Assembly (NCBI GenBank): GCA_963753065.1
Contig: CAVWAQ010000001.1
Location: forward strand, 303,441 to 367,440
Length of the DNA: 64,000 nt
Reading direction: 5' to 3'
DNA from: Candidatus Bathyarchaeota archaeon
GTDB lineage: Archaea; Thermoproteota; Bathyarchaeia; 40CM-2-53-6
In this document: one piece after another, positions 4,975-53,964 of the stretch
How the letters are laid out: every line of letters begins with the position of its first letter
How positions within the stretch are numbered: the first letter of the stretch is position 1
The notes under the pieces: generated by a model
Seen by the model: the letters and a program-made list of their open reading frames with translations, nothing else
Told to the model about the DNA's origin: nothing
Database searches by the model: none
Position numbers and translations under genes: made by a program

Positions 4975-6124
4975 TTACTTAAGCCTCAGTGGGTAGGCTC
5001 CAAACTTTCTTCCGGCTTCAAACATGGATTGGATATTTTCTACGGGGGTGTCAGGCTGTATGTTGTGAGCACCTGCCAATATGTAGCCGCCGTTCCGTGC
5101 TGCCAGTCGTATTACACGCTTTACTTCCGCAACGACATCATTCGGAGTCCCGAGAGGGAGAACTCTTTGAATATCAACTCCTCCGTGCAGACTCAGCTTG
5201 TCTCCGAATTCTTTCTTTATGTTTCCAATGTCCATGTTCGCTGCTAAGCGGTTGGATCGGATTGAGTACGTCTACGCCCACATCAATCAGATCTCCTATG
5301 AATGGATAAATGCTCCCACACGAGTGATGGAAGATCTTTGCCTTCGTCTTGCTGTGTATCAGATCGTACAGTTTCTTCCATCTCGGTTTGATGTACTTTC
5401 TAAGTAGTCCAGGCGAGATCATCGGGGCCGTCTGAGCTCCAACATCGTCACCCAACTCAACCATCTGGACATAGTCTCCTACCTCGTCCATGTAGCGACT
5501 GTAAAACCCCATGTACAGTTCTAGTACTTTGTCTAGAAGAGCTTCGGCAAAATCAGGCCTCTTGTACATGTCCACAGCGAATTTCTCGAATCCTCTTAGC
5601 CACCATGCGCACTCGAATATGCCTCCGAAGATTGCGTCGGCCACAAGCGCGTAGTCCGTTGTCTGGTAGACGTCCTTGACTTCTTCCCCCAGCCCTTCGT
5701 ACCTGGTTGGGTCTCTCGGGTCTGGCCACGCGTAGTCATCTAGGTCGTCTGTTCCCAAGTTCTGGAGCGGATGATAGATCATATCGTAGTAGTAGGGGCT
5801 CTTACCCCATTTTATCCCCCAATCGTCGATGAAGTATGGTCTGCCTGATGGGTCGTCGAATCGATCCTCGCCGCCAATGAAGAAGCCCTTCTTTAACGAG
5901 AAATGTCTGAAATCCACCTCAAGTGTTTTGAGGACAGCCTCATCAAGTATGGCGAGCTGCTGAATCTTGTCCGCTATTTTCACTTCAGGTTTCAATCCTA
6001 ATCGCTTGACCAGTCTCTCGTAGGCGAGAGAGTGCATGGAAGATACGCTTCCGCCCAAATCTATTGGAACTCTGTCCGGCTCTCTATGCTCTAGTGCCAA
6101 CGCAACTCTCTCTCTAGGTCTCAC
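4975..6124 (-). pseudogene. Uroporphyrinogen decarboxylase (URO-D) family protein, MtaA/CmuA-like methyltransferase type, with one frame shift near 5241-5252
   Basis: ORF 5174..6124 reads a URO-D-like body through VGVDVLNPIQP and then runs into nonsense. ORF 4975..5235 supplies the family C-terminus (MDIGNIKKEFGDKLSLHGGVDIQ...NGGYILAGAHNIQPDTPVENI). Confidence 0.75.
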
Positions 6125-46469: not shown

Positions 46470-47366
46470 TCATTTTCTCTTGCGGAACAACTTCAGGCCT
46501 TCGACATCGGTGACATATTCGAAACCGCTTTCGACCAAGTCTTTTGCCTCTTCGACTGTCTTTGCCACTTTGCAGATGAACTGATCACTTTCGTTGTTGA
46601 TCAAGTGAGTGTAAACGAGCGTGTTCTGTATGTTTCTATGGCCCAGCATTTGCATGACATGGAGGATATCTTTGGTTTTCTGATACTCCATCGTCGCCTT
46701 GAAGTGGCGTAGGGTCTTGAAGCTTATGCGCAGCATCTGTGGGTTCTGTAGTTTCTCAGCGATCTTTCTTCTTTGTGCGCTGAAGTTGCGGCTGAAGTCA
46801 TCCAGCGACTCGGACTTGTCGATTGCGGGATTGCGAAGGACATACTCTGAGCGGTGCGGCAAGTGATCTAGCATCATGACGAGTGAGCTTGTGATTTTCA
46901 AGCGCCTTGCTCTACTGCCTTTCTCGGGCGTAATTGTGGCGGTTCCTTGCTGAGAGTTGATGTCAACCCATCTAATGTTCCATGCCTCACCAGCGCGAGC
47001 GCCAGTCTCCTTCAATAGTTGAAGGTAGACAGCGGTCTTTTTGCCGACACCAGGAATTAGCTGATCAACTTCGCTCTCCATTGGGATGAATGGGAGCGTG
47101 TCAACAGCCACATAGTGGGGCTTGTCGAATGGAATCCGCTTGTACGTGTAGAACCTAGCCATGTGTTGAACAAGAATCGCCTTGCGCGCCTCGCTCAGTT
47201 TCGCGCCAGCCAAGTACGCTTTGACCGATTCAGGATTCAGCAAATCCGCCCGTCTAGCCAGACCCTTCAGAGACCGTACGCAAGCCCTGATGGTTGAGTC
47301 CTTGTATCCCTGTTTCATCATCCATGAGGCAAATGACAGAATCTCGCCAAGTGCTCCAGACGACAA
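46470..47366 (-). CDS. tyrosine recombinase / site-specific integrase
   Basis: ETGARAGEA (Arg I), LRHFKAT, GHRNIQNTLVYTH (His/Arg II ... Tyr). The C-terminal GFEYVTDVEGLKLFRKRK tail is typical of archaeal integrases as I remember them. The start lies 20 nt from the tRNA 3' end. Confidence 0.85.
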   Translation of the reverse strand: MSSGALGEILSFASWMMKQGYKDSTIRACVRSLKGLARRADLLNPESVKAYLAGAKLSEARKAILVQHMARFYTYKRIPFDKPHYVAVDTLPFIPMESEVDQLIPGVGKKTAVYLQLLKETGARAGEAWNIRWVDINSQQGTATITPEKGSRARRLKITSSLVMMLDHLPHRSEYVLRNPAIDKSESLDDFSRNFSAQRRKIAEKLQNPQMLRISFKTLRHFKATMEYQKTKDILHVMQMLGHRNIQNTLVYTHLINNESDQFICKVAKTVEEAKDLVESGFEYVTDVEGLKLFRKRK

Positions 47367-47385: not shown

Positions 47386-47539
47386 TGCGGGGGGTGGGAT
47401 TCGAACCCACGAAGGCCTACGCCGCAGGATCTCTCATCCCGAGGCGGATCTTAAGTGTGGCACGACTCAGAGTGGTCGTCCTGCCCCTTTGACCTGAATC
47501 CCGCCCACATCGTATCGTACGGGTCTCGGGAACCCCCGC
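47386..47539 (-). tRNA. tRNA-Leu (anticodon UAA), 154 nt gene with about three intervening sequences
   Basis: Hand fold. Acceptor GCGGGGG/CCCCCGC plus A73. T-arm GTGGG-TTCGAAT-CCCAC. D-arm CCCG..AGGG with GG. Anticodon arm CAGGA-CTTAAGA-TCCTG, assembled only after removing inserts at about 47498-47524, 47456-47478 and 47431-47449. Long variable arm. CTTTT follows the 3' end. Confidence 0.8.
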
Positions 47540-47573: not shown

Positions 47574-47623
47574 TTGTCATGGCGAACCTCAGCTCGTGGC
47601 CACATGCGGCGTGTTCTGAGCAA

Positions 47624-47631
47624 ACTATATG
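47624..47631 (+). promoter_or_regulatory. TATA-like box for the plus-strand tRNA
   Basis: ACTATATG, centred about 31 nt upstream of the tRNA 5' end at 47659. Confidence 0.3.
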
Positions 47632-47658
47632 ATGGCACAGAGGCTAGTCTCGTCGCGT

Positions 47659-47828
47659 GGGCCCGTGGCGCAGTCTCGCAGGTTGACGCCTGCTAGGCGA
47701 AATACGGACAGCGCGGCAGATAGGCCTCTTGGGCTAGCCGAGCCTCCTAAGCAAACCGCGGAACCAGCTGTAGAGTGCGTCCAAAACGCACGCAAAAGTC
47801 CGGGGTTCAAATCCCCGCGGGCCCGCCA
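47659..47828 (+). tRNA. tRNA, probably Arg (anticodon CCU), 170 nt gene with encoded CCA and about four intervening sequences
   Basis: Hand fold. Acceptor GGGCCCG/CGGGCCC, G73, CCA. T-arm CGGGG-TTCAAAT-CCCCG. D-arm GCGC-AGTCTGGACA-GCGC after removing 47677-47705. The local GCCTCCTAAGC (anticodon at 47746-47748) is completed by the distal GCA/TGT stem halves. Variable loop AG/GTC flanks 47774-47797. Confidence 0.7.
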
Positions 47829-47841
47829 TCCCCGACTCTGT

Positions 47842-49161
47842 CTATTCAGATGGCATGCGCCTGATTCGAGTGATGATCTCGTCTAGGGTCAGGGTTTCCT
47901 CTGTGCGTTTCTTCATGTCTCTGAGCTTGAACTGGCCGGATTTGAGTTCTTGAGGGCCGACGATCAAAGCATAGGGAATACCCAGCGAGTTTGCGTACTC
48001 AAGCTGTTTTGCCAGCGACTTGCGCTTAACATCCACATCTGAAGCGATTCGAGCGTCACGAAGCTTAGCTGCAATCGAGAGTGTATGCTGTCTAACTCAT
48101 CATTCACCGCGGCCACGAACACAGTCCCAACTTCTTTGTGCTTGGGAAGTACGCCGGCCTTCTCCAGTGAAATCAGCAGTCTCTCGACACCTCCGGCAAC
48201 TCCTGTCGCTGGAATGCTCCTTTTTCCATAGACGCCGCAGAGTCTGTCGTATCTTCCTCCTCCAAGCACCGCTCCAACCTCTTCTCCTCCTTTGTCGAAT
48301 GCCTCGAAGACGATGCCATCGTAGTATCCGATACCCCTAACGACACTCATGTCGAATAGGCAACGATCCAGTTTGCCTAGACCTTGCAGCGCGTCAGCCA
48401 GCAGCGACGAGTTGCCTGTATCCCAGTTTTGCTTCCTCGCTTCGTGTTTGCACTTCAGAGATCTTCTCGAGAACGCTGGCAGGTTTATCCTGGATCGATA
48501 TGAATTCAACCAGTGAATCAGTGACGCTGCTCTCTAGGCCCGCGGAAAGAAGCTCGGTCTTGACAGCCTCAGCAGAGATCTTTCGAGACTTGTCGACTGT
48601 TCGGAACACTGCCTCGATTTTCTCTTGACTCTTCAACCCCAAGCTTTCGACGAATCCCTGTATGACTTTACGATTCGAGATTCGCACTTCGAATTCCTTC
48701 AACCCAACGTTGCTTAGAATGTCCATGCTTAGGGCGACGGCTTCTGCGTCAGCTGTTGGGTCATCGGATCCGAAGATCTCCGCGTCCCATTGAGTGAAGT
48801 ACCTGTATCGGCCAAATTGTGGTTCATCATATCGCCAGTTTCCGCCAATACACGCGAACTTGATTGGTTCAGGGAGGTCGGAGCGACCAGCTACCATGCG
48901 AGCCATACCGACCGTGAGGTCGAACCTGAGGCCGATGCTGCGGCCTGCCTTGTCGTTAAACCAGTAGATCTCATCCTTGATCGCCGGTCCACTCTTGGCT
49001 TCTAGGGTTCTGAGTTCCTCAAGCGTCGCGGGTTCCATTTCTTGAAAGGCGTATCTTCGAAACATCTCTCTTATTCTCTCGTAGACCCAGTTTCGCTTCG
49101 CCATCTCATCTGGCTCGATATCCCTGATACCTCTCGGCAAGGTGAACTGCTTGTCTGACAT
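47842..49161 (-). pseudogene. hisS: histidine--tRNA ligase, broken by two frame shifts (near 48395-48440 and near 48085-48095)
   Basis: Three consecutive ORFs carry collinear HisRS parts. The first has LPRGIRD...RFDLTVGMARM...WRYDEPQFGRYRYFTQWDAEIFG. The second has FDMSVVRGIGYYDGIVFEAF...GGGRYD...IPATGVAGGVERL. The third has the anticodon-binding end (KRKSLAKQLEYANSLGIPYALIVGPQEL). My hand translation of the third frame bridges the second gap (VRQHTLSIAAKLRDARIASDVDVK). Confidence 0.85.
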
Positions 49162-49294
49162 GCCGCTCGCCCCTATGCTAGTACGATCCGCTAATTCATT
49201 CCGAGGTGTGCTAAGTGTTTTCTTTCGATTCGGTCGCACCACGGCTTATTAGGGGGGAGCAGCAGGTTTCCTAGACTCCTGTCAGGATGCGTGA

Positions 49295-49911: not shown

Positions 49912-50451
49912 CTAGACTCTGAGGAATTCAAGTGAATAGTAGACGATGTCAGTTCGTCTGTCAACCACGGCGAGTATCAGGTCTTTCTTGTCCCTGGAGG
50001 CTCGTTTCAGCAGTGTGCGAAGCGTCTTGAGGTCGGCTTCACCGCCTTCGTAGATTATGTAGACGTACCTTCGCATCGGTCCCTTTCCGTGGACCTCGAA
50101 ATCGAAAACGGGGCATTCTCTGACAACATATCCTCTGTCGCGGAGGTCGCGATATACGAGGTACTTCACCCAGACTGCAGGTTGCCTCGTAGAAACCGAC
50201 TTCACCAGTTCCTCGAATGTGATGTTCTCTTTGTTCTTTCCCTCGACGGTAATCCTGCCCTTTTCGAGAAGATAGAAGGCCTCGTGAGATGTGAGAACGA
50301 GTCTTCTTCCCTTCAGCGTTCCGAAACCGCGCTCACGCATCTCCATCAGTTCTGAGGCTCTCGGAAGGAAAACTTCGCCTGCTCGCAGGGAAGCTTCGTA
50401 GACCTGGAATGGCTTCTCGCTCTCCGACTCATTCGCTGTGTGCTCAGTCAC
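49912..50451 (-). CDS. endA: tRNA-splicing (intron) endonuclease
   Basis: 179 aa. YLVYRDLRDRGYVV, FEVHGKG and KKDLILAVVD fit the Tyr/His/Lys catalytic triad context of archaeal EndA. Confidence 0.8.
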   Translation of the reverse strand: MTEHTANESESEKPFQVYEASLRAGEVFLPRASELMEMRERGFGTLKGRRLVLTSHEAFYLLEKGRITVEGKNKENITFEELVKSVSTRQPAVWVKYLVYRDLRDRGYVVRECPVFDFEVHGKGPMRRYVYIIYEGGEADLKTLRTLLKRASRDKKDLILAVVDRRTDIVYYSLEFLRV

Positions 50452-50529
50452 GTGCAGTCAATCCGAGGCCATCTACGCCGACCTTGCACTTTTAATGTAA
50501 TCGCGCCACGCACTACAGTGGCGTCACAT

Positions 50530-51586
50530 ATGGTTGACCTTACGACTCTGAGGACTGTAGAATGGACTCGTGACGGTGTGCGACTAATTGATCAGAGGCA
50601 GCTGCCAAACCGGCTGACATTTCTCTTGTGCAGGAACTACAGGCAAGTCGCTCGAGCGATACGCGACATGACCGTGAGAGGGGCGCCCGCCATCGGAGTG
50701 ACCGCGGCGATGGGCTTGGCCCTGGCAGCAAAACGCAGCAGACACAGCGACGGAAAGATGCTATTGCTCGACGTTGAGAAAGCCGCAGAGATCATCCGAG
50801 CGACACGACCCACCGCGAGAAACCTGTTCTGGGCGGTCGAGCGAATGCTCGGGAAAGCCCGAGAGGCGGCTGATCAGGGACGTGACATGCGAGAAACGCT
50901 CGCGGCTGAAGCACAGCTCATGGCCGATGAAGACGTGCAAGCCAACCGGAAGATGGGAGCCTACGGCGCAGAGCTGATTCAAGACGGGGATACGATCCTA
51001 ACGCACTGTAACACAGGCACGATGGCCACGGTGAGCTATGGAACGGCCTTAGGAGTAATCCGAAGTGCGATCTCGCAAGGCAAGAAAGTCAAACTCATCG
51101 CAACCGAAACTAGGCCTAGACAGCAAGGTGCCAGAATAACTGTCTATGAGGCTTTATCAGACAAGATCCCCGACGACCTTGATAGTTGATAGTGCTGTCG
51201 CGATCACGATGTCAAGAGGCATGGTAGACAAGGTCATCGTGGGCGCCGATCGCATAACTAGGACTGCAGTCGCCAACAAGGTGGGCACTTTCATGATCGC
51301 GCTCGCAGCCAAACATCATAGTATTCCATTCTACGTTGCGGCACCTACTACAACCTTCGACCTGACCATAGAGCCCACTGCCATGTCGATCGAAGAACGT
51401 GATCCCAGGGAAGTCACTGAGATTAACGGAAGGCAAATCACACCAAAGAAGGGGGTCAGGGTTTTCAATCCAGCCTTCGACTTGACTCCGTTAGAACTCG
51501 TCACCGCCGTCATCACAGAAAAAGGAGTCCTTTCAAGAGAACAGATTCAGAACATGACCAAGATCAGACCGAATACTGGCGGTTAG
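50530..51586 (+). pseudogene. eIF-2B alpha/beta/delta-family isomerase (MtnA 5-methylthioribose-1-P isomerase or ribose-1,5-bisphosphate isomerase), frame shift at the C4 run 51168-51171
   Basis: ORF 50440..51189 (LIDQRQLP..., RGAPAIGV, THCNTG, ETRPRQQGARIT) and ORF 51146..51586 (TTLIVDSAVA...VGADRI...ANKVGT...PFYVAAP) fuse as ...DKIPTTLIVDSA if one C is removed. The start is taken at the ATG at 50530. Confidence 0.8.
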
Positions 51587-52845: not shown

Positions 52846-53964
52846 CTAGACTCGGCATCTCATCGTCGATATGATCTTGTGGTCTGCCCAGATCTTGCAG
52901 GTTCCCTCGGACGAAACCATCGTAGGACCAAGCGGGCTCGCAGGAGTACATTCCTTCATGTATAGTGGACATTCTGGAGGGTCGATCTTGCCGATGATCA
53001 CGTCAGCACAACGAGCATTCCTAACAAAGTCCGCGCCCTCACGCTTCGTCTTGAGGCCATAGTGTTCCCGTGCGTCCAGACGGGAGAACTCAGCTTTCAA
53101 GTCGAGTGCACTGTTCGGTATCGTTGCGACACCACGCCAGTATCCTTCGTGAAGGTCGAATGCTTTCCTCATGGTTTCCTGTGCTTTCAGGTTCCCATCC
53201 CAAGTCACGGCCCGAGTGTATTGGTTCTCCATCTTAGGTTCATTGTCACGGATCTGCGCCAGGATCATGGCCACGGACATGAGGACATCAAGCGGTTCGA
53301 ATCCTGAGAAGACCATCGGCTTGTGGCATTCATCAAAACACGGCTTGTAGGCTTTCATTCCTGTGATCGTTGAGGCATGCCCCGCGTTGATGAAAGCATC
53401 AACCCGAAGATCCGGCGATCTCGAAACCGTCTCGACCGCAGACGGCACATACCGATAGCATGTAAGAAAACGAAGATTAGAAGGTGGCCCTTCGAGTATC
53501 TCGTACGCAGTCGCCGGCGCCGTAGTCTCGAAACCAACTGCGAAGAACACGAACTCCTTATCCGGCCGCGACCTTGCGATCTTGACCGCGTCGTGGACAC
53601 TGTACACCACTCGAACGTCTCCGCCGAGAGTTTTCGCCTCGGCAAGTGATTGCTTCGATCCCTTCGCTCGTGACATGTCGCCGTAGGTCAGGATTGCCTT
53701 TCCGTCAAGTGCGAGATCTACTGCTGAGTCGATGTCAGTTGCGGGCGTGACGCATACCGGACAACCGGGGCCTGCCCGTACCTCTACATTCTCGGGCAGC
53801 AAGCTTCTCACGCCATGGTGTGTGATTGTCCACTCATGGGAACCGCAGACATGCATGATCAGTATTCTTCGTCCTATCTCATGGCTGAGACGGTTGATCC
53901 TTGCCTGCAGCTTCTTCGCTAGGTCAGCGTCCCTATAACCATCAAGGATCGACAAAGCAGTCAC
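52846..53964 (-). CDS. hypD: hydrogenase maturation protein HypD
   Basis: MHVCGSHE, GPGCPVCVT, FETTAP and the C-terminal Cys-rich PECPLYMKECTP...EGTC. Confidence 0.9.
   Translation of the reverse strand: MTALSILDGYRDADLAKKLQARINRLSHEIGRRILIMHVCGSHEWTITHHGVRSLLPENVEVRAGPGCPVCVTPATDIDSAVDLALDGKAILTYGDMSRAKGSKQSLAEAKTLGGDVRVVYSVHDAVKIARSRPDKEFVFFAVGFETTAPATAYEILEGPPSNLRFLTCYRYVPSAVETVSRSPDLRVDAFINAGHASTITGMKAYKPCFDECHKPMVFSGFEPLDVLMSVAMILAQIRDNEPKMENQYTRAVTWDGNLKAQETMRKAFDLHEGYWRGVATIPNSALDLKAEFSRLDAREHYGLKTKREGADFVRNARCADVIIGKIDPPECPLYMKECTPASPLGPTMVSSEGTCKIWADHKIISTMRCRV

Follow-up and report, generated by a model that had tools for sequence, protein, structure and literature searches.

A tRNA-Arg(CCU) gene with four predicted bulge–helix–bulge introns at the end of an intron-gain series in Bathyarchaeia

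The tRNA-Arg(CCU) gene described here lies on the forward strand at positions 47659–47828 of a 64-kb stretch (64,000 nucleotides, hereafter the window) of contig CAVWAQ010000001.1 from a Candidatus Bathyarchaeota archaeon, a member of the Bathyarchaeia. It is 170 nt long (167 + 3 nt), begins GGGCCCG-UG-GCGC-AG and ends CGGGG-UUCAAAU-CCCCG-CGGGCCC-G-CCA. A preliminary description, made by reading the letters of the window, had proposed that its cloverleaf could only be assembled from five exons, and all of the sequence features listed there are where they had been placed: the acceptor strands GGGCCCG (47659–47665) and CGGGCCC (47818–47824), the T arm CGGGG-TTCAAAT-CCCCG (47801–47817), the encoded CCA (47826–47828), a CGCC/GGCG hairpin (47687–47690 with 47696–47699), the anticodon CCT (47746–47748) and a 24-nt insert (47774–47797). 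The analysis set out below indicates that this is very probably a functional gene interrupted by four bulge–helix–bulge (BHB) introns at tRNA positions 15/16, 30/31, 37/38 and 45/46, which would be removed by the tRNA intron endonuclease EndA and the exons joined by an RtcB-type ligase.

The five exons all lie on the forward strand. Exon 1 (47659–47673, tRNA positions 1–15) carries the acceptor 5′ strand, U8 and G9, the D-stem strand GCGC and A14 G15; it is identical across the five four-intron orthologues discussed below and agrees with intronless homologues. Exon 2 (47703–47719, positions 16–30) holds the rest of the D loop (UACGGACA), the D-stem 3′ strand GCGC, G26 and G27–G30, with D-loop positions 47705 and 47709 the only ones that vary among orthologues. 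Exon 3 (47743–47749, positions 31–37) reads CCUCCUA and includes U33, the anticodon CCU (47746–47748) and A37, while exon 4 (47766–47773, positions 38–45), placed from the orthologues and from alignment to intronless genes, consists of A38, the anticodon-stem 3′ strand GCUGU and A44 G45. Exon 5 (47798–47828, positions 46–76) supplies GUC, the T arm, the acceptor 3′ strand, G73 and the encoded CCA. The last of these reads CTA in one orthologue (L006), so an encoded CCA is not strictly required.

Joined, the exons give a predicted tRNA of 78 nt including CCA, GGGCCCGUGGCGCAGUACGGACAGCGCGGCAGCCUCCUAAGCUGUAGGUCCGGGGUUCAAAUCCCCGCGGGCCCGCCA, the length that the preliminary description had arrived at, and ARAGORN identifies this spliced molecule as tRNA-Arg(cct) with a clean cloverleaf of 7/4/5/5-bp stems. 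The spliced anticodon loop (C32 U33 C34 C35 U36 A37 A38) is 7 nt long with a purine at 37 and sits on the stem GCAGC/GCUGU. A20 and C35 are identity elements by which arginyl-tRNA synthetase recognises tRNA-Arg, and they may serve the bathyarchaeial enzyme too; the D loop AGUACGGACA has an A directly after G18–G19, and C35 is present. In a sister clade (L008, L010, L011, L013 and L016–L023) the spliced tRNA-Arg(CCU) loop would be CCCCUAA, with C33 in place of the near-universal U33, and this substitution is kept in 12 loci.

Scanning metagenomes for genes with an intact D arm recovered intronless tRNA-Arg(CCU) genes, among them L148 (GGGCCCGTGGCGCAGTATGGATAGCGCGGCAGCCTCCTAAGCTGTAGGTCGGGGGTTCAAATCCCCTCGGGCCCGCCA), which differs from the predicted product at four positions (74/78 identical) and scores 66.6 bits on the Rfam tRNA model RF00005. 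When the window gene is aligned to L148 and to two further intronless metagenomic tRNA-Arg(CCU) genes, L107 and L104, exactly four gaps open, of 29, 23, 16 and 24 nt, and a single regular expression parses 21 homologous loci linked to the histidyl-tRNA synthetase (HisRS) gene into the same exon scheme. The preliminary description had cautioned that its parse was fitted by hand with many degrees of freedom. That concern can be set aside: the three independent lines (the 21-locus parse, the intronless genes and the plain gapped alignment, which returns the same four gaps) agree, so the exon structure is no artefact of hand fitting, and the proposal of a tRNA-Arg(CCU) gene with five exons and four introns is upheld.

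Standard tools see little of this. ARAGORN at default settings finds no tRNA anywhere in the window, nor is there an Rfam match in the window at the gathering threshold; relaxing the Rfam cut-off to E ≤ 10 around the locus yields no tRNA match and a weak match to the tRNA-like mascRNA over the 3′ part of the gene only. With introns allowed, ARAGORN sets the ends exactly at 47659–47828, itself a sign that the features here are no coincidence, and misparses the interior; since the ends are right and the interior is forced, the interior needs another explanation than the one offered, a tRNA-Ser(GCU) with a single 80-nt intron at 37/38. To that parse we give virtually no chance. It can draw on a BHB-like motif at 47695/47775 whose central helix is CTGC/GTAG and whose outer helix has 5 bp, but its D stem has 3 bp with two non-Watson–Crick pairs, it lacks G18–G19, its 18-nt variable region has no stem, and every orthologue and the intronless homologues contradict it. 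A competing software call of this kind had been foreseen as a threat to the tRNA-Arg(CCU) assignment, which stands. The Rfam tRNA model gives 66.6 bits to an intronless homologue and 46.3 bits to one with two introns, and both it and ARAGORN (at default settings) miss three- and four-intron genes entirely. The tRNA counts of bathyarchaeial metagenome-assembled genomes (MAGs) are therefore likely to be underestimates, and judgements of MAG quality or of ‘missing’ tRNAs that rest on such counts will be wrong for this lineage unless searches are intron-aware.

Every pair of positions was scanned for the BHB geometry that the archaeal enzyme recognises, in which each strand of a 4-bp helix runs on into a 3-nt bulge and is cut there after nucleotide 2 (the cut is marked by an arrow below). 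Published descriptions of the motif are consistent with this geometry (PMC4090602, PMC7714728), and a relaxed motif, HBh′ or hBH, which (αβ)2 and ε2 endonucleases accept, is defined by the central helix and at least one closed bulge (PMC4090602, PMC4033280). The preliminary description had noted inserts of 23 and 16 nt near the anticodon with ambiguous junctions; these now resolve to introns B and C. Intron B (47720–47742, forward strand, 23 nt, position 30/31) has a strict BHB: CGGC (47714–47717) pairs at all four positions with GCCG (47737–47740), the bulges are AG↓A and AG↓C, and a 3-bp inner helix joins 47721–47723 to 47734–47736. The central helix is fully paired in 27/27 distinct homologues having this intron, through the variants CGGT/GCCG, CGGC/GTCG and CGGC/GCTG and, in L028, the fully compensatory CAGT/ACTG.

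Intron C (47750–47765, forward strand, 16 nt) occupies the canonical position 37/38, which is the sole junction compatible with every orthologue. Its BHB is relaxed, with three of four central pairs (47745–47747 with 47760–47762), bulges UA↓A and CC↓A, 3 outer bp and an inner helix of 47751–47752 with 47758–47759, of which the pair 47752:47758 runs from C:G through U:G to U:A among orthologues. The outer helix can form while intron B is still present, because the end of intron B (...GAG) mimics that of the exon (...CAG). The 24-nt hairpin insert that had been put at about 45/46 is indeed an intron by these measures: intron D (47774–47797, forward strand, position 45/46) splits the variable loop and has a central helix CUGU/GCAA with three of four pairs (47769–47771 with 47792–47794), bulges AG↓A and AA↓G, and a 6-bp inner helix (47775–47780 with 47786–47791). 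In sister clades the central helix is CUGU/GCAG or CUGU/ACAG, 4/4, and the strict form is found in 13/20 distinct homologues. A junction-anchored alignment of 14 distinct sequences shows the inner helix to covary, 5/5 pairs having changed on both sides, with 97.3% of cells paired against 16–39% in slid controls.

For the fourth intron, intron A, the preliminary description was right in part. It had a 29-nt intron in the D loop but put it at 47677–47705, where no BHB is found; the true junctions are very probably 47674–47702 (forward strand, position 15/16), where there is a relaxed BHB, and the D loop becomes AGUACGGACA, not AGUCUGGACA. Cleavage by EndA requires a helix between the two bulges. 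At 15/16 this is GCGC/GCGA, three of four pairs (47669–47671 with 47697–47699, plus a G·A mismatch), set between the bulges AG↓U (47672–47674) and AA↓U (47701–47703; AG↓U in L004 and L006), with an inner helix of 47675–47683 with 47688–47696 that spans nine positions and has one mismatch, its place differing among orthologues. No other pair of junctions in the D region combines a BHB-like helix with a normal D loop. Were the same four-intron gene instead to have its D-loop intron at 47677–47705 (17a/18), the required central helix would have one of four pairs and no flanking helices in all five orthologues. In favour of that junction, L047 and L034, two more distant orthologues, have a D loop (AGTCTGGATG) that AGTCTGGA matches, the window–L148 alignment scores the junction equal to 15/16, and ARAGORN accepts its product equally. 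Against it stands the closest relative without intron A, L110, which shares with the window's clade near-identical introns B, C and D as well as the divergent tRNA-Leu neighbour: its D loop, AGTATGGATA, equals the 15/16 product of L006 (AG↓TATGGATA), whereas a junction of the 17a/18 type would yield AGTCTGGATA in L006. The neighbouring tRNA-Leu gene likewise has a strict BHB intron at 15/16 with the D-stem 5′ strand as central helix. Provided that the gene is spliced at all, we are confident from the BHB geometry and these comparisons that the intron should leave at 15/16, and consider 17a/18 quite unlikely. Among orthologues the intron A helix has changed on one side only and is uninformative on covariation. 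A perfect alternative BHB at 47681/47702 (TCGC/GCGA), which uses the same 3′ site, was rejected as the productive site because it would leave an 18-nt D loop.

In the window genome, then, intron B has the strict hBHBh′ motif, and A, C and D have the relaxed one. The three non-canonical introns A, B and D share a bulge signature, AG↓N at the 5′ site and A(A/G)↓N at the 3′ site (47672–47674 and 47701–47703, 47718–47720 and 47741–47743, 47772–47774 and 47796–47798), which the tRNA-Leu introns show likewise; this may reflect a preference of the bathyarchaeial endonuclease or of the process that creates the introns. In each of their BHBs an exon strand also serves as one side of the central helix: for A it is the D-stem 5′ strand, for B positions 25–28 and for D the anticodon-stem 3′ strand. 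With these strands tied up, the precursor must pass through other local folds before it can reach the cloverleaf; an unconstrained minimum free energy (MFE) fold of the 170-mer already holds two of the BHBs, those of B and D. MFE predictions make stable hairpins of introns A and D, whose central helices are imperfect in the window genome, and one could suppose that one or more insertions, such as the variable-region or D-loop hairpin, are retained as expansion arms, the true introns numbering three or fewer. The chance of this seems to us very slender indeed. In relatives without the insertions the D loop is a standard 10 nt and the variable loop 5 nt, and the conserved parts are the 4-nt exon-complementary strand and the AG↓N and A(A/G)↓N bulges, the hallmark of a BHB site. 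We know of no class I tRNA-Arg with such expansion arms.

Comparison with orthologous tRNA-Arg genes bears out the five-exon parse. Ranked by HisRS, the closest contigs come from ‘Candidatus Bathyarchaeia’ MAGs with 98, 88, 86, 80, 79 and 75% identity, which places the window in that lineage, and four other bathyarchaeial MAG contigs (L001, L002, L004 and L006) carry the identical 170-nt four-intron architecture convergent to HisRS. L003 and L005, close relatives by HisRS, lack the downstream tRNA pair, synteny being broken there. Other HisRS-linked tRNA-Arg homologues, which are syntenic orthologues, measure 126–153 nt with three insertions or 103–105 nt with two. Across 30 distinct homologues, three have no intron, seven have B and C, fourteen have B, C and D, and five have all four; two metagenomic genes, L118 and L122, contain the 37/38 intron alone, and intron A is confined to the window's clade. 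Judged from this distribution, the gene is not unique but appears to be the end of an intron-gain series in Bathyarchaeia, in which the introns were acquired stepwise: 37/38 alone, then 30/31, then 45/46, with the D-loop intron gained last. Three of the contigs (L009, L012 and L014) also bear an intron-containing tRNA-Arg with anticodon UCG (loop CUUCGGA) on the minus strand about 5 kb upstream of HisRS; its acceptor and T arm are nearly identical to those of the Arg(CCU) gene, and no counterpart was found in the window.

The genes around the locus follow the order IF-2B-family, EndA, HisRS, tRNA-Arg (convergent with HisRS) and tRNA-Leu (divergent from tRNA-Arg), which is kept in many contigs of relatives. 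The tRNA-Leu(UAA) gene (47386–47539, reverse strand) has three predicted BHB introns, at 15/16 (27 nt), 31/32 (23 nt) and 37/38 (19 nt); it encodes no CCA and is followed by a run of T. A tyrosine recombinase of the phage-integrase family, XerA-like (46470–47366, reverse strand), begins 20 nt beyond the 3′ end of the tRNA-Leu gene, on its downstream side. A homologue of it is absent from the orthologous loci L001–L110 and it looks like a strain-specific integrated element, judging by this distribution; a search over 9.6 kb for direct repeats of the tRNA-Leu 3′ end, as would form the att-type borders of such an element, found none. The HisRS gene (47964–49242, reverse strand) and the IF-2B-family gene (eIF-2B subunit-like; 50440–51586, forward strand) each appear as two overlapping open reading frames (ORFs) in different frames, where the HisRS match in L001 is continuous in one frame; these splits are either assembly indel errors or real frameshifts. 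A T-loop-like motif at 53294–53304 was considered as a further tRNA and dismissed: it falls within a coding sequence and lacks an acceptor partner.

A putative promoter box resembling a TFB recognition element (BRE) and TATA box, GCAAACTATATG, is suggested by conservation and position at 47620–47631 (forward strand), −39 to −28 from the mature 5′ end. Across the window, L001, L002, L004, L006 and L110 its core AAACTATATG never changes and the whole 12-mer hardly does, while the flanks diverge; other clades have a different A/T-rich box at equal distance. AGG makes up 22% of the arginine codons in the ORFs of the window, a level of use that fits a demand for this tRNA.

The preliminary description had entertained the idea that the locus is a non-functional relic, a decaying tRNA pseudogene full of insertions that is not processed into a working tRNA. 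The blindness of default ARAGORN and Rfam to the locus, the nearby integrase gene and the frameshifted look of two neighbouring protein genes would suit such a history. A relic would, however, be expected to show free exon drift and lost expression signals, and in the five four-intron genes, whose HisRS proteins are 75–98% identical, variation touches only 3/78 exon columns (two in the D loop, and the middle C of CCA) but 19/92 intron columns (Fisher p = 0.001). The five genes are equal in length, compensatory changes keep the helices, the TATA-like box is conserved, and the insertions lie exactly where BHB geometry demands. Comparative data of this sort point to purifying selection on the exons, a pattern unlike that of a decaying relic, and a pseudogene seems very unlikely.

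Nor does the four-intron state seem to be confined to this gene. Four of 19 distinct tRNA-Leu(UAA) orthologues also parse into five exons, so carrying four introns appears to be a lineage trait and not a one-off. These are sister-clade genes with a fourth, variable-arm intron, 183 nt long in L016, 173 nt in L018 and L023, and 161 nt in L021. Contig L042 holds a 174-nt tRNA-Lys(CUU)-like gene (5131–5307, forward strand) that is interrupted at 30/31 and 37/38 as well as in the D loop and the variable region; from its layout this may be another four-intron gene, although no clean BHB was found for the variable-region insertion.

How intron A arose is a matter for speculation. The 7-mer AGTCTCG occurs twice, in the 5′ leader (47646–47652) and across the junction of exon 1 and intron A (47672–47678), and GCGCAG (47668–47673) recurs as TCGCAG (47676–47681), the second copy forming the alternative, non-productive BHB mentioned above. 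Global similarity of intron A to the leader and exon 1 gives P = 0.004–0.08, and the segment free of BHB constraint shows none. Speculatively, intron A could have originated in a local duplication of which the leader and exon repeats are possible traces; the D stem being palindromic, a duplicate of it would form a BHB at once. Transposition of introns between tRNAs was tried as another source and rejected, the longest word shared by Arg and Leu introns (CCTTGGGCTAG, 11 nt) being reached by about 13% of shuffles and not significant. A broader proposal joins these strands: that BHB introns are actively or recently proliferating in Bathyarchaeia past a three-intron ceiling (in Arg(CCU), Leu(UAA) and possibly Lys(CUU)), and that intron A was born de novo by local duplication of the leader and 5′ exon around the palindromic D-stem GCGC. 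New introns may then appear at recurrent sites (15/16, 30/31 and 45/46), share the AG↓N bulge and reuse an exon strand as central helix. Taken as a whole this combination strikes us as rather unlikely; if it were true, local duplication would be a specific mechanism, open to testing, by which archaeal tRNA introns are born.

A gene of the EndA family lies 2 kb from the tRNA-Arg gene (49912–50451, reverse strand) and matches Pfam PF02778 and PF01974. Aligned with the M. jannaschii and M. kandleri enzymes, its product lacks the catalytic His loop, as does the M. kandleri beta subunit, and has His at the position of the catalytic Tyr (Tyr in some homologues) with the Lys kept; it scores under the NCBIfam endA cut-off. 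The lost loop, the substituted Tyr and the low score lead us to read it as a structural partner, probably the structural subunit of a heteromeric (αβ)2-type splicing endonuclease. Passages in two papers report that EndA of the (αβ)2 type accepts relaxed BHBs (PMC4033280, PMC5829648). From the exon structure, conservation, BHB geometry and covariation described above we infer how the gene would be transcribed, cleaved and ligated, and by which enzymes. Transcription from the BRE/TATA-type promoter about 30 nt upstream would give a precursor of at least 170 nt, whose ends RNase P and RNase Z would trim; EndA, probably broad-specificity and of the (αβ)2 type, would recognise the four BHBs and cut between bulge nucleotides 2 and 3, releasing introns of 29, 23, 16 and 24 nt from 15/16, 30/31, 37/38 and 45/46; and an RtcB-type ligase would join the five exons into the 78-nt tRNA.

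Several points weigh against this account. Three of the four BHBs have just three of four central pairs, and the 3′ bulge of intron A has no closing outer helix. By homology alone the choice between the two intron A junctions comes down to one nucleotide (A17 versus C17), so that the enzymological (BHB) argument carries most of the weight for 15/16. The MFE fold, at −75.9 kcal/mol, is predicted to be more stable than a conformer with all the BHBs formed (−52 to −59 kcal/mol). The nearby EndA lacks the catalytic His loop, and neither a catalytic subunit nor RtcB was seen in the 64-kb window. Splicing and expression are predictions from sequence, and with the view limited to 64 kb the genome may hold a second, intron-poor tRNA-Arg(CCU) copy elsewhere. 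We nevertheless hold to the reading of a functional, four-intron tRNA-Arg(CCU) gene.

The suspicion that four introns would be at or beyond the known extreme agrees with the literature: three introns per tRNA gene is the maximum given in two papers (PMC4033280, PMC8450103), and the eukaryotic extremes, C. merolae and the nucleomorphs, also end at three (PMC3728597, PMC4090602). In the searchable literature, which covers few subscription journals, we found no report of four introns in one tRNA gene and nothing on tRNA introns in Bathyarchaeia. As far as that literature goes, the documented ceiling would thus rise from three to four in any domain, and in a lineage that is among the most abundant uncultured archaea of sediments and soils and whose tRNA biology is undescribed. 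The series of 0, 1, 2, 3 and 4 introns in one conserved gene family amounts to a natural experiment on the order and mode of BHB-intron gain, and also lets one ask how relaxed a BHB the endonuclease tolerates.

Among the closest known systems are the Thermoproteales (Crenarchaeota), whose tRNA genes are well documented to hold several introns, at 30/31, 37/38 and 45/46, bounded by strict or relaxed BHBs (PMC4090602). As work on species such as Pyrobaculum calidifontis and Thermofilum pendens is relayed in later papers (Sugahara et al. 2008, via PMC4033280 and PMC8450103), these genes too have short protein-spliced introns at 37/38 and at non-canonical sites including 30/31 and 45/46, several to a gene, with strict or relaxed BHBs, an apparently rapid gain within the lineage and an expected broad-specificity EndA. 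They differ in reaching a maximum of three introns, where the gene described here and some tRNA-Leu orthologues have four in another lineage, the Bathyarchaeia, and in the sharing of intron sequences between tRNAs that has been reported for them, of which there is no sign here (P ~0.13, Arg versus Leu introns). The Thaumarchaeota, for which tRNAscan-SE 2.0 has a separate BHB model (PMC8450103), are a related TACK lineage whose many short non-canonical introns were likewise missed by older models; no four-intron genes are reported there.

Outside the archaea, the three-intron nuclear tRNA genes of Cyanidioschyzon merolae, such as that for tRNA-Ile(UAU) (PMC3728597), resemble the bathyarchaeial gene: BHB motifs bound every intron, whether it lies at 37/38, in the D arm or in a third region, and stepwise processing intermediates have been shown there by RT-PCR. 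C. merolae is, however, a eukaryote, and its genes have at most three introns, compared with the four predicted here, and some are also permuted. Finally, the split and tri-split tRNA genes of Nanoarchaeum equitans and Caldivirga maquilingensis (PMC4090602) are broken at positions of the 30/31, 37/38, 25/26 and 29/30 type and processed by EndA and ligase via BHB-like structures. Their parts are encoded at separate loci and trans-spliced, unlike the five exons described here, which are colinear in one 170-nt gene.

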